From an uncultured archaeon (GTDB lineage Archaea > Asgardarchaeota > Lokiarchaeia > Sigyniarchaeales > SOKP01), in NCBI GenBank assembly GCA_964493715.1, contig CAZBPC010000085.1, forward strand, positions 1-14,742: a stretch of 14,742 nucleotides of DNA, given 5' to 3'. Position 1 is the stretch's first letter; each line of letters starts with the position of its first letter. Made by a program: the position numbers and the translations under genes. The notes beneath the pieces are model-generated. The model was not told where the DNA came from. It made no database searches and saw nothing but the letters and a program-made list of their open reading frames with translations. Shown piece by piece: positions 1 to 14,330 of this stretch.

Positions 1-1219
1 CTTCAATATATATAGCTATTGCTTTCCCAATCGCGCACTTTAACTTTAATTTTTCGTCATTATAGATGTCTGATAACTCCTCTGTAAAATTATATTGAAG
101 TATGGCCTCCTTATAGAGTCCGTGAAATAGTAAAATTAAAGCTTTCAAGTAATTCAAAGTCAAACAAGTGTGAAAATTTTGAATAATGGTCGAAAATAAA
201 GCAGCTCTTTCAAGAGCATCAATTGCATTGTTGATACGACCAAGAGTAACTAATAAGAATGCTCGTAAAAACTCCATTTTTGAAATTTCAGAGCATATTA
301 ATTGCTGCACGATTTCAAAATCTTTCAAGGTAGTTAATTTACCTGCTGCTAGTTGTAAAAGAGAAACCAAAAAACCATTACCTTTCTTCAAGAATGAAAC
401 CGCATCTTTACTTTCATTTTTAATTATTGCTTCCCTTGCTTTATTTACATATTCCCGAGATATTTTTAAATTTTCAAGGAAATACATAATACTTGTTACT
501 AATTCTTCTTTACTAGCTGTTAAATTTTGGTTTTCAATATATTTCTCAGCAATTTCAATTTCTTCAATATGTTTTGATCTACCTATCTTAAATTTAACAG
601 CATCATCTTTTGCGAGAATTGAATCTTCAGTAACGGATACTGCTCTTTCAATTAGCCATTGAATCTTTTGTTCAGCAGGATAAATTTTAGAACGTTCAAT
701 CATGTAAGAGAGAGTATAGTTCAGACTTTTTTTCCATATATTTTTAAAATAGGCTCTTAATACATTGTCAGGTATGGTTCTTTGAACTTTCAGTAAAAAA
801 CTTGAAAGAGAGAGAATATTTAATTTATTTTTAAACAAAAGAGAGGCATTTTTCGCCAATTTAAAATCATCCGTAACCAAATGGGTTGTTATCCCTTCAT
901 TATCATCCATTAACCTTTCACTTAAAACCAATAATGAGAGATCAGGGTCTTGTGCTGGAAATTTTACATTAAATTCACTCAAATTATTTTTAACCATACT
1001 AATTTCTGAATGTAAAACAGGTTCAACATTGACAAATCGAGAAATTTTATCCCTGTATGTATGCGGTCCTTTCACTTCCCCGAAGACAACTTCACTCATG
1101 TAGTAATCCAGATCTAAGACTTTACTTGCTTTTTCTAAGTTCTTTAATACATCTTTAGCCCGAATAGACAACATACAAATAAAAAAATTCGCGTCGAATA
1201 CGATGTTTTCTTTTGGCAT
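1..1219 (-). CDS. PIN-domain nuclease fused to C-terminal TPR-like helical repeats (3' end beyond window edge)
   Basis: Translated by hand from ATG at 1219; open for 406 codons to the window edge and absent from the ORF track because it has no stop. MPKENIVFDANFFI...SEVVFGEVK...AQDPDLSLL...HLVTDDFKLAKNA carries the four acidic PIN positions (DAN, E, DxD, TDD). The C-terminal part has TPR-like helices: FLRAFLLVTLGRINNAIDALERA, YLKALILLFHGLYKEAILQYNFT, CAIGKAIAIYIE. Confidence 0.85.
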   Translation of the reverse strand, partial: MPKENIVFDANFFICMLSIRAKDVLKNLEKASKVLDLDYYMSEVVFGEVKGPHTYRDKISRFVNVEPVLHSEISMVKNNLSEFNVKFPAQDPDLSLLVLSERLMDDNEGITTHLVTDDFKLAKNASLLFKNKLNILSLSSFLLKVQRTIPDNVLRAYFKNIWKKSLNYTLSYMIERSKIYPAEQKIQWLIERAVSVTEDSILAKDDAVKFKIGRSKHIEEIEIAEKYIENQNLTASKEELVTSIMYFLENLKISREYVNKAREAIIKNESKDAVSFLKKGNGFLVSLLQLAAGKLTTLKDFEIVQQLICSEISKMEFLRAFLLVTLGRINNAIDALERAALFSTIIQNFHTCLTLNYLKALILLFHGLYKEAILQYNFTEELSDIYNDEKLKLKCAIGKAIAIYIE

Positions 1220-1849: not shown

Positions 1850-3772
1850 TCAAGTCAGCCAGATTGGAATTAATTGATTACAAGCAAATCTAAATTCCTC
1901 AATAATTGTTTCATTTTCAGGTGAAATATCAATTAGAAAGAAGTCGTTTAGAGATTTTTGAACTTCCTCCTTCTTTTTTAAATCTTTGATTGATTTTTGA
2001 ATCATTAAAATAAACTCATTTAGAGGAGCAATGATTTGATTAACTAAAAATTCTTCAAGTAAAATCGTATCAGAATATGATTGAAAATTATAGGTAATAA
2101 CAAATCTAAGAATATCTTCTACATTATAGAAATGCCTATCTGGAATATTCACTCCGAACGATTTTAACTCACCTCTTAATTCATCCTTGTTCATACTGAT
2201 GACATAATCTGGCCATACATCGTCAGAAACATTTAAATCCTGGAAAATAAATAATTCCAATACTCTTAACGCAATATTTTTTCCAATATAACGACTTCTG
2301 GGGTCAATGAAGTTTTTCGATGCTTGGTTTGGACTTTTTCTAATAAAAATTTGATCTATTAAGGTATAAAGCATTCGGCATATATGATCAACAACATCTT
2401 TAAATGTGAAAGGCTCATCATCAAATTTCTCACTTATAGTTTTATTCTCGCTTTCAATTAGTGTAGATAATTTTAAATTTAGACTGTGTAAAAAAGTCTT
2501 GAAAAAGCTATAATTCATGCTTGTCAAATGTTTATTAAATATTTTCTCAAAAAGAATATCAACATTATTAATACTTGAAAGAATTGAAGCATTGTCAATG
2601 AATTTCTGGACTCTTGTGAATGCAACATTATCAATTTTGTTCTCATGGTTTTCATTATACTGATTTAATGCTAATTTGAACTTTTCGGGTAAAAACAGCA
2701 TGCTCTTTTCTACAAATGCTTTCAAACTACTACCTCCAAAATATACTTTCATGTAGAGTAAGAATAAATTAAATTGAGCTTTTGAACTTGGAAGGTTATT
2801 AGATTGGAATGTACTATACAGCGTGGATTTCTGGTCTAAAAAATTAAAAATTTTTATTATAGAATCTTTTTTTCCTTCTGAATAATTAAAATTTACGAGA
2901 AACTGTTCTTTAATTACATCTATTTTAGAGTAAACTGAATCTTCTACACGAGCACAGACGAAATTGATAAAATCTAGGAGAGGAGAAAAGTTATGCAAAA
3001 GGTTGCATTTTTTGTAAAAATAATACAGTAGATCTACTAATTTCTCTTTAGCCAAAGGATAATTCTTAATTGCCAGATTGTATAATTTTTCTCTACCTAA
3101 TAATAATTTTCCGTAATAATCTTCAGGAATTCCCTTGAAATGTCTCAGGAAGTAATACAAAAACATGTAATAATAATATTCAAAAAGATTATCCTTACTA
3201 TCCTTGATAACAATTAAGAAATTTAGAATATTATTGTTTTCTTCTTCTCGTAAAACAGCTCCATCTAAAATCACATAAAAAGCTTCCTTCATGAGTTTCC
3301 TTAAGATTACGCCAAGGATAGATACTACAATGTATAGATACCCAGTTGGTGTTGTTATTCCATTTATTAAATTTCCATAATTCTGACCAAATTCCTTGAA
3401 ACTTCTTTTTTCCTCACTTGACATTACATAATTATATTCTAAAAAAAGATTATCTTCTGAGACTTTTTCTTTAATAATCAATTTTAATGATTTGCTATCA
3501 AATCCACAGAATCTTTCAAGGAAATTTTGAAAAAAATCATTAAAGTATAAATAAAAAAATGTGGTATACGTTTTTTGTATGACTCTGGTTTTATTTTGAA
3601 GTTTAAAGGCTTCCCATTTAAATTGTATTTCGTTTTGAAATACTTCCAATTCATGATCTTTATTCCTTAAAATGTTAAAAAATGAGCTAGAATTTAATTT
3701 TAGGGAAACACCTTCATCCTTCATTCTGTCTCCCATTGTTTCAAGTATTTTATTTAGTCCTATGCTCGACAA
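1850..3772 (-). CDS. Hypothetical 640-aa soluble, mostly alpha-helical protein
   Basis: Long ORF rich in F/Y/L/K/E with no recognisable catalytic motif. The start is uncertain (TTG at 3772 or a downstream ATG). Confidence 0.8.
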   Translation of the reverse strand: MSSIGLNKILETMGDRMKDEGVSLKLNSSSFFNILRNKDHELEVFQNEIQFKWEAFKLQNKTRVIQKTYTTFFYLYFNDFFQNFLERFCGFDSKSLKLIIKEKVSEDNLFLEYNYVMSSEEKRSFKEFGQNYGNLINGITTPTGYLYIVVSILGVILRKLMKEAFYVILDGAVLREEENNNILNFLIVIKDSKDNLFEYYYYMFLYYFLRHFKGIPEDYYGKLLLGREKLYNLAIKNYPLAKEKLVDLLYYFYKKCNLLHNFSPLLDFINFVCARVEDSVYSKIDVIKEQFLVNFNYSEGKKDSIIKIFNFLDQKSTLYSTFQSNNLPSSKAQFNLFLLYMKVYFGGSSLKAFVEKSMLFLPEKFKLALNQYNENHENKIDNVAFTRVQKFIDNASILSSINNVDILFEKIFNKHLTSMNYSFFKTFLHSLNLKLSTLIESENKTISEKFDDEPFTFKDVVDHICRMLYTLIDQIFIRKSPNQASKNFIDPRSRYIGKNIALRVLELFIFQDLNVSDDVWPDYVISMNKDELRGELKSFGVNIPDRHFYNVEDILRFVITYNFQSYSDTILLEEFLVNQIIAPLNEFILMIQKSIKDLKKKEEVQKSLNDFFLIDISPENETIIEEFRFACNQLIPIWLT

Positions 3773-3895: not shown

Positions 3896-4936
3896 TTAAA
3901 AAATTTTCAAAATTTCGTCTATTTCAGAATAGATCATTGGCTCTATCTTATCATCAAGTTTTTTTATTCTCAAATCTTTTTCCTTTTCTGTAAAATGACC
4001 AATAATTTGTGCTTCAATGCCATCATCTCTCAATAGATCTACTAATTTATCAGAATTTATTTCCTCTAAAGCAATTAATAGTGATCCGGAAGAAATTGTA
4101 CCGAGTGGATCCAAGCTAAAGATTTCACTTAATATTTTGGGTTCTGGTAATATGTTTATCTTTTTTTCATCAATTAACACGCCTAGATTTGAAGCAATTG
4201 CCAACTCCGCAATGCCAGTGGTTAAACCTCCTTCTGTTGGATCGTGCATGGCGTGAATATCAAATTTGCTGTTCGCTAAGAGAGCTTCCTTCATAATACT
4301 TATTCCTGGATGATGAAGATAACTTTTGCATTTTTCAATAAAAACATCACTGAATCCTTTTTTTCTTAATACTGCTTCTTTTTCTCTTCCAATTATTGAG
4401 GTTCCTTCTATAAATATTCCCTTTGTTAGAATTAAAGCATCACCTTGACAAACTCCAGAAGACTTAACCAATTTTTCTTTTGTTACTTCTCCTAATAATG
4501 ATCCTACAATAATGGGGCGAACAAGCCCTGAAGTTACTTCAGTATGACCCCCTATAATTGTAATATTTAAGGAACGACACGTATCGTGTATATCCTTGAA
4601 TATAGATTCTATTAAATCAGTTGAAGTATGTTTTTCAGGTAAAAGAATAGTAGATTGAAACCATTTTGGAGTTGCTCCAGTGCACACCACGTCATTAACG
4701 TTAATATGAACTGCATAGAAACCAATTTCGTCAGTAGCGAATGTAATGGGATCAGTTTTGGCAACTAGGTAATTATGACCCATATCAATTACTGCTGCGT
4801 CTTCTCCTAATTTAGAACCCACGATAACTCTCTCATCCTTAATTTCAAGGTCAGAAACATAGGTATTTAGGATTTTGTTCAGAAACTCGTGTTTTAATTT
4901 GCCCAACCCGAGTTTTTTATTAGATATCTCACTCAT
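3896..4936 (-). CDS. AIR synthase-related (PurM-like superfamily; HypE/ThiL/SelD relative) ATP-dependent enzyme
   Basis: Motifs LGKL, GEDAAVID, TDPITF, HINVNDV, GGHTEVT, GDALILTK, AMHDPTEGGL and SSGSLL. It lacks the C-terminal PRIC of HypE and the N-terminal C/U-x-x-K of SelD. Confidence 0.88.
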   Translation of the reverse strand: MSEISNKKLGLGKLKHEFLNKILNTYVSDLEIKDERVIVGSKLGEDAAVIDMGHNYLVAKTDPITFATDEIGFYAVHINVNDVVCTGATPKWFQSTILLPEKHTSTDLIESIFKDIHDTCRSLNITIIGGHTEVTSGLVRPIIVGSLLGEVTKEKLVKSSGVCQGDALILTKGIFIEGTSIIGREKEAVLRKKGFSDVFIEKCKSYLHHPGISIMKEALLANSKFDIHAMHDPTEGGLTTGIAELAIASNLGVLIDEKKINILPEPKILSEIFSLDPLGTISSGSLLIALEEINSDKLVDLLRDDGIEAQIIGHFTEKEKDLRIKKLDDKIEPMIYSEIDEILKIF

Positions 4937-5030
4937 GAGCCAATCAATATTAGTAATGGTATATTATTTAAATCTCAAATTATTTTTTTTTTCCAAAATC
5001 TTCAATTTTGAAACTGGTAAAATTGGTCTA

Positions 5031-5045
5031 ATATAAATTTATATA
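5031..5045. promoter_or_regulatory. TATA box (TTTATATA, 5038-5045) overlapping the palindrome ATATAAATTTATAT (5031-5044) in a divergent intergenic region
   Basis: Archaeal TATA consensus about 50 nt upstream of the 5093/5099 start. Confidence 0.5.
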
Positions 5046-5092
5046 GCTTATGTATGATTATGATTATATAATTAACAAAATATAATGAGTTA

Positions 5093-5611
5093 GTGAAAAT
5101 GGGATTCGGAAAATCATTCGGCTTTAGCTTACTCACGTATATTGGGCTAAATTTCCTTTTTGTAATTATTGTTGAGACAATAAGTGGTGATTTAAACACC
5201 ACATTCAGTGTAATATCAGCTGATCCCTTTATAATAATTCTAATCTTGTTTGGACCTATTACTAATACCCCAGGAATGGTTTTTAATGGGATAATATTGC
5301 AATTAACAGGTATATTAGGCTTAGATGTACTAATTGGATTCATCGGTAACATAGTTTCGCTTTTTATAGCTGCCATTGTTGCTGGTAGGGTAGGTGAAAA
5401 TAAGGGAGCAAGCTTTGGAGGCTTTTTGCTCACTGCATTTGTTAGTGTACTAGCAATAAGCGCTTTAGTTTATTTAAGCCCAGCAACTTTAACGGCTTAT
5501 AGTTTACCTCCTAATATGACAACTATTGCCTTAGCATCAGTTGGTGGGATAACCAATGGCATCTTTTATGGAGCTTTTGCCCTGCTATTTACAAAAACTG
5601 AAATGTATTAA
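5093..5611 (+). CDS. Small polytopic membrane protein (about 4-5 TM, Gly/Ala-rich)
   Basis: Almost entirely hydrophobic, with a short loop AGRVGENKGASFGG. The real start may be ATG 5099 (MGFGKSF). Confidence 0.8.
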   Translation: MKMGFGKSFGFSLLTYIGLNFLFVIIVETISGDLNTTFSVISADPFIIILILFGPITNTPGMVFNGIILQLTGILGLDVLIGFIGNIVSLFIAAIVAGRVGENKGASFGGFLLTAFVSVLAISALVYLSPATLTAYSLPPNMTTIALASVGGITNGIFYGAFALLFTKTEMY

Positions 5612-5635
5612 TAAAAATTTTTAGTGAAGTAGGCA

Positions 5636-5668
5636 TTTTTCTTTTTTTTTATTTAATATGCAAAATAG
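5636..5668. terminator. Bidirectional oligo-T/oligo-A terminator region between convergent genes
   Basis: TTTTTCTTTTTTTTT follows the + gene, and AATAGAATAAAAAAA (T-rich on the - strand) follows the - gene. Confidence 0.6.
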
Positions 5669-5693
5669 AATAAAAAAAGTATGTTTTTAACGT

Positions 5694-9110: not shown

Positions 9111-12100
9111 ATGGGATTAGGTATTGATTTAAATTTATTAGATTCGTTCTCAAAAGGGACTAATCTCGAAAAAGTGCAAGACATATTTAATTCAATAATG
9201 TTGAATATCGAAGAGAATTTGGGTAGTAAACCATATGAAACTAATGTTAGGATTATCATTTTAGATACAGAAAAAATAGAATTAAATTTAGAAGATCCTT
9301 TTGAATTTGGTGTAAAACGTTCTCTTGATGATTATTTAAAAATTCAAATCTCATTCAAGTGTATAAAATTTATTCCTCAAATTTTGTTAAGAGAATGCTA
9401 TAAATTGTTCATTATTCCTAAAAATCGAAAGAGTATTCAAGTTCAATTTATAGTCTACATGATAATAGAATCGGAACTCGAAACTTTGAATAACATGATA
9501 GATTGGAAGAAAACTATCAGAGGATATGAGAATTTTCAGCAGTATTTCACAGATAATGGTGATATGTTGGTAAAATTCTTAAAATTAGAAGATCCGGATA
9601 CGAAAGAAAACATCATCCCGATTCTTTTTCAGCTGATTAACTCTCTCGAGCCAGATTTTCTCAATGATACTATTTTTGAGATCATTGTAATTGAATTCAT
9701 GAATCGGATCAGGCTATATCTTCAAGATGATGATATTTTAGAAACCATAAAAGTGCTTAAAGAAATATTTTTTTCTGTTAAAAACTACCGAGCTTTACTT
9801 GAGTATCAAGATTACTTCAAGCAATTTAAAGAAAGTGGTTCAATAACAACTAACTTAAGTCTCCGCAAATTTACATCTAACGTGAGATGGCTAAATAAAC
9901 ATTCATTTTGTGCCCCTGATTACCATTTGGATTGGTTTACGATTAACATGGCGATCTATATCATCTATATTCGGTTCCATCCCTGTTGCAGGTGGAGAAA
10001 TGTTAAAATGTTTATGAAGAACTTGCCATTTTCCTTATGGCCGCAACTTACTGCAATTGGTTATGCTCAGGAATTTTTTGGGTATATCATCATTCCTAAT
10101 TCATACATAAAGGATCTGAAACAATCTCTTGAGTTTTTCAAAGGTACTGGTTTCTTTCAAGAAATTAAAATTTATGAACCCGAGACATTGCACTACTTCC
10201 TAAATCTTAATTATTACGGAAATCTTACTAAAATGGGCAAGTTCTTGCATGCTAAGCGAAAAGGATATCGCAAGGACTTCGAGCTCATTTTCAAGACAAA
10301 ATACCAGAAAAAAGTAGTTCTGAAGGAACTTTCTTTACTTGATTTTATAATATTAGATAGAGTAAGAAATTTATCTTTTACAGGATTTGGATTTGAAAGA
10401 AGAGAATCTACTTTGAAAGATTTAAAATCAGATTTATTAAAAGAGATCTCCTATCAGAAAAATGTCATAGTTCAATTAAGAAACGTGATTGATCGGTTTT
10501 CTAAATCACCAGATCTAAAAAATATGTTTTTAGATTTACTTCAAAACAATAAAAGATATAGCTTCTTTACATTCACCGAATATATGAAACAAATTGTTGA
10601 TTCTATTAGATTATCCATGGAAATTTTAGAAAAAAATTCATCTTTAACTAATCCTATTTCTTTTAATGAGTACATTAATAAGAAAGGAATCTCAATGGCA
10701 CTCCATAAAAATTTTAATCTTAATAATCAACGAGTACGAGATTTACTGGTAAATAAACTCATTCCACTTTATTTCCGCAATAGAAATCTCTTTAATGAAG
10801 AATATCAAGCATTTTTACTGTTTTTTGAATATTTATTTATTTGCAGTGAACTAAAAATATATGATTTAAATTCATTGAAAAACATTCTTGAGAATCCAGA
10901 TGCTTCAACAAGGATTTATTCTGCAAAAGAAGAAAAATTAGATTTGATATATAAGGAGTCCCAATTGAGAAATATAACAAGTACGGAAGTGGAGAATCGG
11001 CTTGAAGATTTTTCAACTTCAGTTCCCCCAATTATATCTCCAAAAATGCTGGATTCAATGATAACTGCTTTATATTCTACAATTTCATTCATTCTTCTGG
11101 CCAAAAATACAAGCAGAGTATTAAGTTTCCTAGAAAAATTAGCACACACTGTTCCACATTATACTTATTATGAATTGAAAGACATCAAGGATGATCAAAA
11201 TTTTATTTTTTGTCGATTTGGAGTTCAAGGAATAGATACTAAAGGAAAATATGAATTCTTTTCAATCGTACATAATCATTTAAAAGAGGATTTAATAATT
11301 CTTGCTCGTTTCATCCACCAAGGTTTCTATTCTACCTTTTCCCGGAGGAATTATTATGATTTCATCGATGGTACGTTCTTTTATACTCCCAATCTTTATT
11401 CAGAATTCAAAAAATCGATTGCAGATCAATTTGGGAAAAATTTGACTCCTATCTATATTCAGGCACCTATCAATCCTGATAATTTTTGGATTAGTAAAAT
11501 TCACTTAGAATCCTTTGTAGATGCATTAAACCAAAGTAGAATTATGGAACCTCAACATTTTGACTTGAATCAATTAGATCAATTGTTAAATTTTAATAGA
11601 AGATTAGAATATTATTTGCTGAATTCAAAAGCATATCAAGATTTAAGAGAAAAAGAATTCTTCCAATTTATAAATTCTATTCGAATCAAACCAATCCTTC
11701 CAGAATTTGGTTTACAGAAATATTACTTGTATTTTCAAGCAATAGATTTCAATGCAATCATACCTGAATTACTTCTTATAAATACTTTCACGTCTGTAAG
11801 ATTTAATTCACCTAGATTTGATACATATTCCTTTTTGGTTAAATATATATTTCCATATAATACTCCAAATAAAGCATATTTAAACTGGCAATTATTCTCC
11901 AAGAAAAACTTCAATGAATATTGTTTATTCACCATCAAAAAAACTCATAAAATTTTTGATTTCTCCAAAAACATCACGCGGGATGGATATAGAATTGATT
12001 ATAATCAATTCATTCAATATGTTCAAAAAATTTTATTTGATCCGTCATATAATCCCTATCATCCTAACTCCAGAACTTTGAATTTTGAAAAAACTAATTT

Positions 12101-12716
12101 TGATTCATATATATCACCTACAAATCCTAAATTTAAGGATCTATTGAAAATATTCAAGAGAAAATCTAATATCAAGAGTTTCTGGGCTACTAAAAAAGGA
12201 ACACAATTAGAACAGGTTATTGTCAGGCTTCTAAAAAATAAATTAATCTATCCATCACTGACATTTAAGAATCTAAAGCTAAGAGAATGTCTATACTTCA
12301 TCATACCTGACCTTAATGAGGAGCAAGTTAAAATTCTTATAAAATTATTCCAGTTTTTTAATGTTGTATCCATTAATGAGATATCAGGTGAATTTTTTGT
12401 TAATTCTTTTGATGAAATGATCACATTCAGCAATGGGTTGTTTATAAAATTAAAATTACCTGAAATGGAAATAAGCCCCTATGTGGATACGTGGTTTGAA
12501 GTATTTGATCATCTAAATATCAAACATTATATTTTTTTCTCCGAGTTATTCAAGACAAAGAAATGGTTACGTGAGATTTTCAAGGATTTTGATTTAAAAC
12601 ATAACTATCATCCCTTACTAAACCTACAATGGAATGATATTGACAAAATTTACAAAAATCATAAATTATTTGGCGAAAATTTCACACCACAATATCCGAA
12701 ATTAAATCCAGAATAG
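9111..12716 (+). CDS. 1201-aa protein: degenerate zincin-like N-terminus plus about four tandem Lrp/AsnC-like (wHTH + RAM) modules; putative regulator
   Basis: The ORF itself is clear; the domain call is by eye. Repeated segments resemble the Lrp wing-to-RAM junction: VRWLNKHSFCAPDYHLDWFTINMAIYIIYIRF, VENRLEDFSTSVPPIISP...SFILLA, IRIKPILPEFGLQKYYLYF and VRLLKNKLIYPSLTFKNLKLRECLYFIIP...EISGEF. No TM helix or signal peptide. Confidence 0.6.
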   Translation: MGLGIDLNLLDSFSKGTNLEKVQDIFNSIMLNIEENLGSKPYETNVRIIILDTEKIELNLEDPFEFGVKRSLDDYLKIQISFKCIKFIPQILLRECYKLFIIPKNRKSIQVQFIVYMIIESELETLNNMIDWKKTIRGYENFQQYFTDNGDMLVKFLKLEDPDTKENIIPILFQLINSLEPDFLNDTIFEIIVIEFMNRIRLYLQDDDILETIKVLKEIFFSVKNYRALLEYQDYFKQFKESGSITTNLSLRKFTSNVRWLNKHSFCAPDYHLDWFTINMAIYIIYIRFHPCCRWRNVKMFMKNLPFSLWPQLTAIGYAQEFFGYIIIPNSYIKDLKQSLEFFKGTGFFQEIKIYEPETLHYFLNLNYYGNLTKMGKFLHAKRKGYRKDFELIFKTKYQKKVVLKELSLLDFIILDRVRNLSFTGFGFERRESTLKDLKSDLLKEISYQKNVIVQLRNVIDRFSKSPDLKNMFLDLLQNNKRYSFFTFTEYMKQIVDSIRLSMEILEKNSSLTNPISFNEYINKKGISMALHKNFNLNNQRVRDLLVNKLIPLYFRNRNLFNEEYQAFLLFFEYLFICSELKIYDLNSLKNILENPDASTRIYSAKEEKLDLIYKESQLRNITSTEVENRLEDFSTSVPPIISPKMLDSMITALYSTISFILLAKNTSRVLSFLEKLAHTVPHYTYYELKDIKDDQNFIFCRFGVQGIDTKGKYEFFSIVHNHLKEDLIILARFIHQGFYSTFSRRNYYDFIDGTFFYTPNLYSEFKKSIADQFGKNLTPIYIQAPINPDNFWISKIHLESFVDALNQSRIMEPQHFDLNQLDQLLNFNRRLEYYLLNSKAYQDLREKEFFQFINSIRIKPILPEFGLQKYYLYFQAIDFNAIIPELLLINTFTSVRFNSPRFDTYSFLVKYIFPYNTPNKAYLNWQLFSKKNFNEYCLFTIKKTHKIFDFSKNITRDGYRIDYNQFIQYVQKILFDPSYNPYHPNSRTLNFEKTNFDSYISPTNPKFKDLLKIFKRKSNIKSFWATKKGTQLEQVIVRLLKNKLIYPSLTFKNLKLRECLYFIIPDLNEEQVKILIKLFQFFNVVSINEISGEFFVNSFDEMITFSNGLFIKLKLPEMEISPYVDTWFEVFDHLNIKHYIFFSELFKTKKWLREIFKDFDLKHNYHPLLNLQWNDIDKIYKNHKLFGENFTPQYPKLNPE

Positions 12717-12870
12717 TAAAAAGAACATAAGAATAGATACGGGTTTCTTCAAATAAAATTTTTTATTAATAGTCATACGATATAAAAAAAAGATTTGTAT
12801 ATACTTCTTTCTTTTTCTCTACTTCTAAAACATAAAAAATTAGATAGTAGGAGTTTAATTTATTATTTCT

Positions 12871-12890
12871 AAAAAATCGAAGTTTATATA
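12871..12890 (+). promoter_or_regulatory. BRE/TATA promoter of the small peptide gene
   Basis: A-rich AAAAAATCGAAG immediately followed by TTTATATA (12883-12890), about 52 nt before ATG 12942. Confidence 0.65.
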
Positions 12891-12925
12891 CAAGGTTCTA
12901 GAGAGATCAATACACCAAATAAGGT

Positions 12926-12932
12926 GTGAGGT
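12926..12932 (+). promoter_or_regulatory. Shine-Dalgarno GTGAGGT
   Basis: GAGGT ends 9 nt upstream of ATG 12942; this is the clearest RBS in the window. Confidence 0.7.
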
Positions 12933-12941
12933 AATATAGAA

Positions 12942-13064
12942 ATGGATAAAAATAAAATTTTTATTGCGATTTTGTCAGCTTTAAGTGTGATTTCTCTTGG
13001 AATCGCTTTAAGTTCAACTTCATACGCCGTAGGCTCCTTTTTTCCAGGCGGTGGAGTTCCTTAA
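12942..13064 (+). CDS. 40-aa secreted pre-peptide MDKNKIFIAILSALSVISLGIALSSTSYA|VGSFFPGGGVP
   Basis: Below the ORF-track length cut-off and translated by hand (ATG 12942, TAA 13062-13064). It has a basic n-region (KNK), a hydrophobic h-region, a polar c-region ending S-Y-A, and an 11-aa tail. It has its own TATA, RBS and terminator and is GC-richer than its flanks. Confidence 0.8.
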   Translation: MDKNKIFIAILSALSVISLGIALSSTSYAVGSFFPGGGVP

Positions 13065-13077
13065 TTAATCCACGTTG

Positions 13078-13117
13078 AGGAGTATGGATACATACTTTTA
13101 TTTTCTTTTTTTTTTTT
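13078..13117 (+). terminator. Hairpin plus long oligo-T terminator after the peptide gene
   Basis: AGTATG-gata-CATACT (13081-13096, extendable by G-U pairs) followed by TTTATTTTCTTTTTTTTTTTT. Confidence 0.75.
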
Positions 13118-13196
13118 GAACAAGAACTTCTTACTCGATATTATGGGATTAGATTAATTGAAATTCAATACTTCTATATTGAAATAATTACTATCA

Positions 13197-13436
13197 ATGA
13201 TGAACTCAAAAATGACAGAAAGAAAAATTTATCTAAATAATAATGTAAAAACGTTGATTAGAATTGCTAAAACTTATAATATAGATGGGAAAATGACTTT
13301 ATCAGATTTTAAAAAATATGCTGAAGAAGAAGAGATAATTGAAAAGAAATTTTATGCCCATTTTAATCAAGCTTGCTACTTAGGATACCTTAAAAGAGCT
13401 GACAATGAAGTGATCTTCATAAGAGATTACGATTAA
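13197..13436 (+). CDS. Small stand-alone winged-helix-like protein (79 aa or slightly shorter)
   Basis: Helix, GKMTLSDFKKYAEEEEI, helix EKKFYAHFNQACYLGYL, then hairpin KRADNEVIFI fits a wHTH topology. Several in-frame ATGs make the start uncertain. Confidence 0.6.
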   Translation: MMNSKMTERKIYLNNNVKTLIRIAKTYNIDGKMTLSDFKKYAEEEEIIEKKFYAHFNQACYLGYLKRADNEVIFIRDYD

Positions 13437-13592: not shown

Positions 13593-14330
13593 TCATCTTC
13601 TCTCAGAGACCGAATTTCTTGCAGAAATAGAGTTCTCAAACATAACGTTAAAGATTTCATTCGCTCTTTGTTCGATTAGCTCTCTTCTTTGAGCCTGACC
13701 TTTCTCAGACTTTTGGTATCTCTCCATCGCGATTTTACGCCATTTCTTTTCCCAGGATGGGAAACCAGTTTTAACATAGCGTTCCCGATTTGGAAAATCT
13801 TGGCAAATCCAATTAAACATAACAAAATATCTCTGAAAACCCGCCTCTGTCGTAAGCTTGCTCGATTTTATTCCTAATTTTCTTAGATGTTGAATAAATC
13901 TACCTTCCACGGCGTCTTGAAGGACTCCTTCTACAACTGCTGGCTCGTAGTATATCCCATTCTCTTCAAAATATTCTCTTACAAGATCAAAGCAATTACC
14001 ACGACATAGAAGTATCCTATCACTGTCGTTATGATTAAGAATTCTAAGAGCTTTTATAACTACTTTTAGAATGTGCTTCTTCGGTTCAAGAATGTGTTTG
14101 TTGTTATCCTCGTCGTCTTTATAGAGGTCAACAGGAACCGATTGAAATATAATTTTTTCCGTGCTCGTATCACGGAGGCCAATAAAGGCATTTCCGAGAA
14201 GATCACCAGTCCCAGCGTCATCAATTTCTATTGTTCTTCCCTTCCACTCGCTGGGGTTAATAGTGGATTGGCACGACTCTCGCTCTTCATTATTTGAGAC
14301 TCGGTCGTCTTTTTTTGTTTCTGTCTTCAT
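13593..14330 (-). CDS. Uncharacterised RNase H-fold-like protein
   Basis: N-terminal strand IEIDDAGTGDLLGNAFIG resembles the RNase HII/HIII GxDEAGRG/DESGKGD motif. Later motifs (ILLCRGNCFD, VEGVLQDAVE) do not match RNase HII. Confidence 0.6.
   Translation of the reverse strand: MKTETKKDDRVSNNEERESCQSTINPSEWKGRTIEIDDAGTGDLLGNAFIGLRDTSTEKIIFQSVPVDLYKDDEDNNKHILEPKKHILKVVIKALRILNHNDSDRILLCRGNCFDLVREYFEENGIYYEPAVVEGVLQDAVEGRFIQHLRKLGIKSSKLTTEAGFQRYFVMFNWICQDFPNRERYVKTGFPSWEKKWRKIAMERYQKSEKGQAQRRELIEQRANEIFNVMFENSISARNSVSERR

Follow-up and report, generated by a model that had tools for sequence, protein, structure and literature searches.

A conserved family of short pre-peptides in Asgard archaea and its recurrent linkage to a protein of about 1200 residues

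Introduction

Does a very short open reading frame (ORF) in the genome of an uncultured Asgard archaeon encode a product of its own and, if it does, is that product a secreted peptide, a small membrane protein or the precursor of a modified peptide? The question is raised by the stretch of DNA analysed here, called the window throughout, which covers the 14,742 nucleotides of contig C85 (CAZBPC010000085.1) of a 3.68-Mb genome in 160 contigs (the own genome, G000) from the class Lokiarchaeia. Downstream of a gene for a protein of 1201 residues lies an ORF (Table 1) that an initial annotation, made from the letters alone, had taken for a real gene with a complete transcription unit, whose product would be about three quarters signal peptide followed by a short uncharged tail. 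The ORF is present with the 40-residue product as that annotation gave it, and the family entry stored for it (P0078) has the same sequence. What emerges from our analysis is a self-contained, conserved pre-peptide gene, whose most likely product would be an exported and cleaved peptide of about 11 residues, a call that the features of the pre-peptide leave close to evenly balanced. A signalling role coupled to the large neighbouring protein is the most interesting reading that the data allow; it is unproven and we consider it rather unlikely.

Results and discussion

The ORF belongs to a lineage-restricted family of short peptides

Homology, and not length, is what identifies the ORF as a gene. 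An open frame of at least 44 codons was present in 1525 of 2000 mononucleotide shuffles of the 480-nucleotide intergenic stretch 12717-13196, and the length of the ORF alone is at chance level. The homologues form a family of 50 distinct sequences of 35-56 residues that share a common plan, with a basic N-terminus, an uncharged core, a small-x-small site (S-Y-A, T-H-A, A-H-A, G-F-A, G-L-G and similar variants) and a tail of 8-13 residues. The tail follows the pattern polar, aromatic, aromatic or Pro, Pro, Gly-rich, x, Pro, and in all members the stop codon comes directly after the terminal Pro. In an alignment of the 14 members from genomes of the genus (alignment A1), the initial Met and the terminal Pro do not vary, at least 90% of the sequences have a Gly two positions ahead of that Pro, and the leaders are only 20-47% identical between clades, with the tail motif common to them. 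The own genome itself has two clear members, the second of which combines another leader with the same tail ending, and one divergent candidate with a TTG start, located upstream of a paralogue of the large protein.

Among 5.8 billion clustered proteins, a profile search restricted to lengths of 19-72 residues gave 146 candidates, 26 of which are proteins of 35-45 residues. With HMMER we searched 1.84 billion representatives of any length and found 21 proteins at E <= 0.001, 20 of which are 35-56 residues long; the 21st (P0095, 364 residues) is a Cys/Trp-rich repeat protein that matches profile positions 5-32 only, six times over, and which we take to be a false positive. Apart from it, no homologue longer than 56 residues was found among the 1.84 billion representatives, and since no longer homologue exists there, the possibility that the window ORF is the truncated remnant of a longer secreted protein, which the initial annotation had itself named among the outcomes that would refute it, is rejected. 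Conservation of the frame, another point it had raised, holds in both close and distant relatives.

The family is present in 9 of the 41 genomes of the genus at E < 0.01 and in 10 of the 152 genomes of the order at E <= 0.001, eight of these ten being in the genus (7 of the 40 relatives plus the own genome) and one each in two other genera of the same taxonomic family. For the window peptide, Pfam gave only a sub-threshold match to DUF5325 (17.6 bits, cut-off 25) and the ESM Atlas no usable match; NCBIfam returned nothing for nine proteins, a related-locus search of genome contigs ended with 0 confirmed loci, and the relatives P0071 and P0074 carry the Joint Genome Institute label 'hypothetical protein'. 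This is a lineage-restricted family without Pfam or NCBIfam coverage, and even the conservative reading of the locus adds such a family to what is described.

Conservation at orthologous loci argues for a gene of its own

The frame is open in the three closest orthologues, which are 79% (G001), 74% (G006) and 62% (G022) identical to the peptide used as query; this query matched 13 of the 41 genus genomes at E <= 10, and the rows beyond these three are mostly noise. The sole difference in ORF length between the window and the three copies is one whole codon. When the DNA of five loci is aligned, the copies of G001, G022, G023 and G006 all retain the TATA-like box in register, GAGGT or CAGGT is kept in G001, G022 and G023 and not in G006, and the T-run is kept in G001, G022 and G006. 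The G006 copy lies in a different context: its identity to the window is 84% over the ORF, 75% over the promoter and 5' untranslated region, 58% over the upstream spacer and 48% over the end of the preceding gene. Since both the promoter with its untranslated region and the ORF are retained in an unrelated context, they have been conserved as a unit of their own. Furthermore, the G+C content of the ORF is 0.366, compared with 0.227 and 0.242 in the flanking spacers.

Could the ORF nevertheless be a chance frame, a conserved non-coding element or the 5' end of something larger? Several observations weigh on that side. As said above, chance alone would be expected to yield a frame this long; the ratio of nonsynonymous to synonymous differences per site (pN/pS) is 0.37-0.80 over the six pairs of the four closest orthologues, which differ by 5-22 substitutions per pair; and the variable columns are distributed over codon positions 1, 2 and 3 as 13, 9 and 17, with a third-position excess that is only mild. 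Taken together, pN/pS and the codon-position counts are consistent with coding but weak, and as regards transcription, none of the 24 sequencing runs listed is an RNA run. Opposed to these points are the 50 distinct homologues that all stop directly after the terminal Pro, paralogues that differ in DNA and leader and share the tail motif, the lack of any homologue above 56 residues once the false positive is set aside, and an Rfam scan of the whole window that found 0 families. A search for tRNA genes across six loci also found none. The non-coding explanation is already largely refuted and strikes us as very improbable, and we regard the ORF as almost certainly a real gene.

The elements of the claimed transcription unit are all present in the sequence. 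The TATA-like box, TTTATATA, lies about 52 nucleotides upstream of the ATG and, together with the A-rich stretch that resembles a transcription factor B recognition element (BRE), may act as the promoter; the Shine-Dalgarno-like GTGAGGT and the T-run are likewise where the annotation had placed them. The hairpin at the 3' end is only weak (-13 kcal/mol, z -2.24; 3 of 200 shuffles fold equally well) and was not flagged by a scan for bacterial-type terminators, although hairpin and T-run together would likely serve as a transcription stop. The same scan flagged only a terminator-like stem of eight pairs inside the ORF, situated over the best-conserved part of the leader. This stem is flanked by the 9-mer GCTTTAAGT, which occurs twice and encodes A-L-S each time.

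The pre-peptide has the layout of a cleavable signal, with a membrane protein as the main alternative

The proportions that had been claimed for the product, a leader of about three quarters and a short, uncharged tail rich in Gly, Pro and aromatic residues, are borne out by the translation. The window peptide shows the layout of a class I signal, that is, a basic n-region, a hydrophobic h-region, a polar c-region and small residues at -3 and -1, and cleavage after Ala29 fits the manual (-3,-1) small-residue rule. By the same manual rule, a site that leaves 8-13 residues is present in 50 of the 50 members; the rule is permissive, in that by a rough estimate about half of random sequences of the same composition pass it, and the 50 members are related. 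More telling are the peptides linked to clade X of the large protein (P0087, P0105, P0108 and P0112, with tails of the type ...G-x-G-G-P; the clades are described below), in which a core of about 15 residues is followed by Gln or Glu and then by the small-x-small site. Because a core of about 15 residues is too short for a comfortable membrane span, these peptides look like cleaved signals. The own genome encodes one archaeal signal peptidase I (sigpep_I_arch, 96.2 bits, cut-off 51.85). The pre-peptide would then enter the membrane by way of the Sec translocon and be cut after S-Y-A by the archaeal signal peptidase I, and an uncharged peptide of about 11 residues, ending in Pro-Gly-Gly-Gly-Val-Pro, would be released outside the cell. 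Judging from these sequence features, we give Sec export with signal-peptidase cleavage about as much chance of being right as of being wrong.

The alternative is that the product stays uncleaved, as a single-pass micro-membrane protein with its N-terminus in the cytoplasm, residues 6-25 spanning the membrane and the Pro/Gly tail on the cell surface, where the tail would pack onto some other component of the membrane or surface, or modulate it. Several features of the window's own clade favour this possibility and thereby weigh against release of the tail. The uncharged stretch is about 18-24 residues long, enough for a membrane span. The core A-L-S-V-I-S-L-G-I is nearly invariant in the clade and has a central Gly and many small residues, as helix-packing faces do. 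Conservation is no lower in the leader core than in the tail, an unusual finding for a leader that serves export alone; pS is 0.15-0.27 in the leader and 0.28-0.83 in the tail, calculated on very few sites, and in the DNA of metagenome contigs from related strains no stretch is better conserved than the leader core at 12975-13016. Moreover, a leader-only profile gave 0 matches below E 0.05 among the 4055 own-genome ORFs of at least 100 residues, and the idea that the leader is the generic signal peptide of the organism is unsupported, there being no similar N-termini in these larger ORFs. The opposite side of the balance holds the small-x-small site, found directly before the conserved tail in all 50 members, and the clade-X-linked peptides, with their short core, Gln or Glu and small-x-small site in the arrangement of a cleaved signal. 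An uncleaved protein would in addition expose only about 5 residues to the cytoplasm, so a linkage to a cytoplasmic protein based on contact would be hard to explain. On balance we consider an anchored product possible, though on the unlikely side.

Small single-pass membrane proteins that modulate larger partners are familiar from bacteria, for example MgrB, SafA and AcrZ. These resemble the window peptide in size, in having a single hydrophobic helix and in their short exposed tail, and differ from it in that they are not known to carry a conserved small-x-small site with a conserved Pro/Gly tail after it; nor are they known from archaea.

Other classes of leader were considered and rejected. 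In a class III (prepilin-like) signal, a Gly or Ala at -1 stands directly before the hydrophobic stretch, which is followed by a pilin domain; the n-regions here (MDKN[KR], MKK, MKIK) have no Gly or Ala before the core, and only a tail of about 10 residues follows it. A lipobox was rejected because Cys is not conserved, and a type I toxin was rejected as well. The sorting signals of archaeosortases and exosortases (PGF-CTERM, PEP-CTERM and GlyGly-CTERM) likewise combine a Pro/Gly motif, a hydrophobic helix and a basic cluster; here, in contrast, the order is reversed to basic cluster, helix and motif, and the element forms the N-terminus of a product of 40 residues that lacks a cargo domain, and such a sorting signal was rejected for the reversed order and the absence of cargo.

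A third possibility is that the tail is the core of a ribosomally synthesised and post-translationally modified peptide (RiPP), cyclised or modified before or after export into, for example, an antimicrobial or metal-binding product. A short Pro/Gly-rich core that ends in Pro and varies in its penultimate residue (V, T, M, C, I or G) would be compatible with this, as would two individual loci: in G041:C111 a 100-residue ORF and a YcaO gene come after a member whose tail contains a Cys, all on one strand, and the G006 copy sits beside an Rce1-like CPBP protease and an MFS transporter. A candidate modifying enzyme, however, adjoins only 1 of the 18 family loci and no known one is encoded in the window, though an enzyme of a new type is conceivable; the leader is a hydrophobic export signal and not a recognition leader, and none of the fold matches of the large neighbour is a known RiPP enzyme. 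We therefore find a RiPP precursor improbable. The G041 member is itself divergent, and among the 18 loci it is the only one whose surroundings have the layout known for azoline or thioamide RiPPs.

The peptide genes recur beside one subset of a family of large proteins

Ten of the 18 family loci, with tandem copies counted once, lie within 750 nucleotides of a gene for a homologue of the 1201-residue protein, either downstream of it or divergently upstream (Table 1). These homologues are 1160-1230 residues long and often occur as two or three copies per genus genome; the 68 database relatives are all labelled hypothetical, with 0 precomputed Pfam domains among them, and the names attached to homologues place the organism in Promethearchaeota/Lokiarchaeota. 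A third paralogue in the own genome (G000:C87) has two TGA and five TAA codons inside the match and is probably a pseudogene.

In a quick maximum-likelihood tree of 37 large proteins, with support from the Shimodaira-Hasegawa-like approximate likelihood ratio test (SH-aLRT) only, three clades X, Y and Z are found. An adjacent peptide is present at 4 of 4 loci in clade X, at 4 of 8 in clade Y, at 0 of 23 in clade Z apart from the weak candidate at L049, and at 0 of 2 in the outgroup. Neither the family profile nor a family-blind heuristic, which looks for signal-like small ORFs with Gly/Pro tails, found a peptide-like neighbour at 22 clade-Z loci or at the two outgroup genes, and across all 37 loci this heuristic returned the same loci only, plus a single artefact located within an adjacent gene. 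The clades of the peptide correspond to those of the large protein, and the nine peptide-bearing genomes of the genus are exactly the nine that have a clade-X or clade-Y protein.

How much this linkage says about function is limited by several facts that speak against a coupling. Eight of the 18 peptide loci are unlinked to the large protein. Since the nine genomes may be a single lineage, their co-occurrence is not independent evidence, and common descent may be all that lies behind the association of the peptide with clades X and Y. Furthermore, the large protein is found in 38 of the 41 genus genomes and the peptide in only 9, so most large-protein genes work without it.

Among the unlinked loci, three syntenic copies belonging to a second peptide clade lie downstream of the 23S rRNA gene; this arrangement is shown for two of them, the third being the second member of the own genome, which sits 288 nucleotides from the start of its contig. 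By their position, the second-clade peptides may be co-transcribed with the rRNA operon or read through from it. The G041 and G006 loci were described above, and the three remaining unlinked loci have neighbours without names.

The neighbour is predicted to combine a zincin-like domain with Lrp/AsnC-like modules

At the sequence level the 1201-residue protein is without a family in Pfam (E <= 0.01, TPR included) or NCBIfam, sequence and profile searches of the PDB gave best E values of 0.34 and 2.9, and a scan of the own genome with PF01037 found 10 places, none of them in contig C85; the ESM Atlas gave only a lead of 0.81 to an HTH_AsnC cluster. An AlphaFold2 model built on an alignment of 60 sequences reached a predicted local distance difference test score (pLDDT) of 87.0 and a predicted template modelling score (pTM) of 0.86. 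Foldseek with the full model found nothing at E <= 0.001, the best match being the siroheme decarboxylase NirDL at 2.3e-3, and a second structural aligner also placed NirDL first (4czc_A, Z 13.9, root-mean-square deviation 5.5, 300 of 305 residues aligned over model residues 206-771), with the next row at Z 8.4. Lrp/AsnC regulators scored Z 6.2-6.9 over residues 202-369 with 138-149 residues aligned, and ACT/RAM-like domains were also listed. In the model the secondary structure repeats an Lrp/AsnC-like unit about four times, and the predicted fold is that of a winged helix with a beta-alpha-beta-beta-alpha-beta (RAM) domain.

The N-terminal 215 residues, folded alone (pLDDT 81.9), matched 32 chains at Z >= 5, the highest Z being 7.5 over 171 aligned residues and values below 8 being middling; almost all of these chains are zincin-fold peptidases, such as thermolysin, M1 aminopeptidases and LasB, and Foldseek with this domain found nothing at E <= 0.001. 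The domain has no HExxH motif; on the helix expected to bear it (residues 82-98), L-R-E is the only invariant motif and no His is conserved. Provided that the fold assignment is correct, the domain is thus not a canonical metalloprotease, given that both HExxH and a conserved His are absent. As modelled, the architecture resembles a zincin-like N-domain followed by about four tandem Lrp/AsnC-like (NirDL-like) modules, and we take the protein as cytoplasmic because the model shows neither a signal peptide nor a membrane span. NirDL and AhbAB are the closest comparison for the modules, by the 300 of 305 aligned residues, together with the single Lrp/AsnC regulators; what sets the neighbour apart from these is that it has no sequence-level match and carries about four modules in one chain behind an extra N-domain. 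This is a first, modelled, structural description of a protein that is widespread in the genus and had been labelled only hypothetical.

A coupled signalling role is a tentative reading

In Lrp/AsnC regulators, small ligands are bound between the C-terminal domains, and genes transcribed divergently beside the regulator are frequent targets. Because of the recurrent linkage to a protein with modules resembling these, the interpretation tilts towards a peptide that is regulated or sensed. We hypothesise that the released peptide would most plausibly act as a diffusible signal, whose production, sensing or both would be tied to the neighbouring protein, which could control the peptide gene or could sense the peptide after its re-import. 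Re-import is conceivable, given that the own genome encodes one OppA-type peptide-binding protein. That the best fold match, NirDL, is an enzyme and not a regulator counts against this proposal, together with the limits of the linkage given above, and we regard a signalling role coupled to the large protein as unlikely. More doubtful still is the full circuit that it suggests, in which an exported signal of about 10 residues, of the form aromatic-Pro-Gly-Gly-Gly-x-Pro, would be re-imported and read by a cytoplasmic receptor of a new kind, made of a zincin-like pseudo-peptidase domain and four Lrp/AsnC-type ligand-binding modules. Such a circuit would include cognate pairs, clade X with ...Q-G-G-P tails and clade Y with ...G-G-G-x-P tails, and tails that diversify between sediment strains, and these elements share its doubtful standing.

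Direct contact was assessed with a complex prediction whose inputs were alignments of the large protein (residues 1-955) and of the complete pre-peptide. The score of 0.45 (0.45, 0.54 and 0.43 in three runs), against 0.00 for the best control, weakly supports an interaction; the partner had a pLDDT of 38-40, at least 37% of the contacts were common to the runs, and the hydrophobic leader and the truncated partner call for caution. In the calibration, which holds only roughly for our own alignments, 58 of 80 solved complexes and 2 of 110 mismatched pairs attained the mark. At scores of up to 0.60, however, it was reached by only 7 of the 80 solved complexes and by both mismatches, and a pass at this level is therefore more often wrong than right.

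Contigs from four DNA runs contain the locus together with related variants. In runs X3, X4 and X7, contigs of related strains match the leader core (window 12975-13030) and then diverge into other tails. Since the variant contigs come from the same metagenome runs, several tail types are present in one habitat, and these co-occurring tails would fit diversifying signals and, equally, plain species diversity.

A comparison with peptide-receptor systems of the RRNPP type from Bacillota (Rap-Phr, PlcR-PapR, NprR-NprX and AimR-AimP) is instructive. The features by which such systems are recognised, according to PMC10075063, are a propeptide of 10-100 residues, Sec secretion according to SignalP, a receptor of about 250-500 residues, tetratricopeptide repeats (TPRs) and neighbouring genes. 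The window peptide (40 residues) and its family (35-56) fall within the propeptide range, and the genes are neighbours, with a gap of 225 nucleotides in the window and adjacency at 10 of the 18 loci overall. As to secretion, the n-h-c layout and a (-3,-1) site are found in 50 of 50 members by manual inspection, under a rule that is permissive. The neighbour (1201 residues, homologues 1160-1230) is far from the receptor range, and it has no TPR by Pfam, its folds being of the Lrp/AsnC/NirDL and zincin types. The two kinds of system are alike in a pre-peptide of about 40 residues with a Sec-type signal (here by layout only), in an active part (here presumed) at the extreme C-terminus, in the position of the gene beside that of a cytoplasmic protein, downstream or divergent, and in paralogous pairs within one genome. 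They are unlike in that there is no pro-region here between signal and tail, that the host is an Asgard archaeon and that most homologues of the large protein come without a peptide. Because receptor size and TPRs, two of the five features, do not agree, the pair in the window is at most an analogue of the RRNPP systems and not a member.

The known archaeal cell-cell signals are small molecules, a carboxylated acyl-homoserine lactone and diketopiperazines. According to the introduction of PMC12240190, archaeal communication is little known; in PMC12700828 the mention of archaea sits in a reference. Searches of the open-access full-text literature returned nothing on ribosomally made signalling peptides, or on small secreted peptides, from Asgard archaea. 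If it were true, a pheromone circuit of the kind proposed would give archaea, in the lineage nearest to eukaryotes, their first described signal system based on gene-encoded peptides. The compact pre-peptide family and its candidate partner offer a directly testable entry point, since the peptides can be synthesised and the neighbour expressed.

Other features of the window and of related loci

The coordinates of the features discussed are collected in Table 1.

Table 1. Features of the window and of the related loci, with positions on the contig or locus named.
Feature	Position	Strand	Remarks
Pre-peptide ORF, 40 residues	Window 12942..13064	+	Stop included; ATG start; from ORF list and translation
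Leader, residues 1-29	Window 12942..13028	+	Basic n-region MDKNK, uncharged stretch of about 18 residues, polar c-region SSTSYA ending in S-Y-A
Tail, residues 30-40 (predicted mature peptide)	Window 13029..13061	+	Ends aromatic-Pro-Gly-Gly-Gly-x-Pro; terminal Pro invariant
A-rich BRE-like stretch and TATA-like box (putative promoter)	Window 12871..12890, box 12883-12890	+	From sequence
Shine-Dalgarno-like GTGAGGT	Window 12925..12931	+	10 nt before ATG
Short hairpin, then long T-run	Window 13082..13112, T-run ~13089-13112	+	From folding and sequence
Terminator-like stem inside the ORF	Window 12987-13006	+	8 pairs
Large neighbour, 1201 residues, taken as cytoplasmic	Window 9111..12716	+	225 nt upstream of peptide ORF
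79-residue ORF	Window 13197-13436	+	
245-residue ORF	Window 13593-14330	-	
Peptide downstream of large gene	G000, G001, G022, G023	Same as large gene	4 loci
Peptide 739 nt downstream of large-protein paralogue	G022:C59		1 locus
Peptide divergent upstream of paralogue	G001:C111 (three tandem copies), G022:C59, G023:C47, G015:C222	Divergent	4 loci
Peptide divergent upstream, another genus	G066:C52	Divergent	1 locus
Second-clade peptide ~250 nt downstream of 23S rRNA gene	L057: peptide 4031-4171, 23S rRNA 4418-5546	-	One of three syntenic copies
Second-clade peptide ~250 nt downstream of 23S rRNA gene	L056: peptide 4401-4538, 23S rRNA 4785-5687	-	One of three syntenic copies
Second own-genome member	C34:289-393		Third syntenic copy
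Divergent own-genome candidate	L049: 649-759	-	TTG start
Member near YcaO gene, G041:C111	L061: peptide 1501-1617, 100-residue ORF 1055-1354, YcaO gene 1-1068	-	YcaO match 7.5e-30
G006 copy	L058: peptide 2251-2367	+	Between MFS transporter and Rce1-like CPBP intramembrane protease; HEPN-domain gene next door
Other features of L058	755-1987 (-), 2561-3520 (-), 3676-4059 (+)		
Zinc-ribbon ORF	L055: 4819-5058	+	Beside clade-X gene
Zinc-ribbon ORF	L050: 848-1162	-	Beside clade-X gene
Zinc-ribbon ORF	L051: 4128-4394	+	Beside clade-X gene
Zinc-ribbon ORF	L063: 2021-2266	+	Beside clade-X gene
Third large-protein paralogue, probable pseudogene	G000:C87:10040-13328	-	

The only named neighbours in the window are MobB, an AIR-synthase-related protein and an ADP-forming acyl-CoA synthetase-like protein. 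At four clade-Z loci (L027, L029, L030 and L037) a conserved stretch lies about 150-220 nucleotides downstream of the large gene; it translates as a similar, spurious small ORF in the four genomes, and no tRNA was found there. The clade-X large genes are accompanied by an ORF of about 80 residues with a zinc-ribbon pattern, CPRC...C..C, which is unrelated to the 79-residue protein encoded downstream of the large gene in the window. The latter protein and the 245-residue one are both without a Pfam or NCBIfam family; the first is about 83-85% identical in G001 and G022, and the second 86% identical in G001, the only locus that reaches that far.

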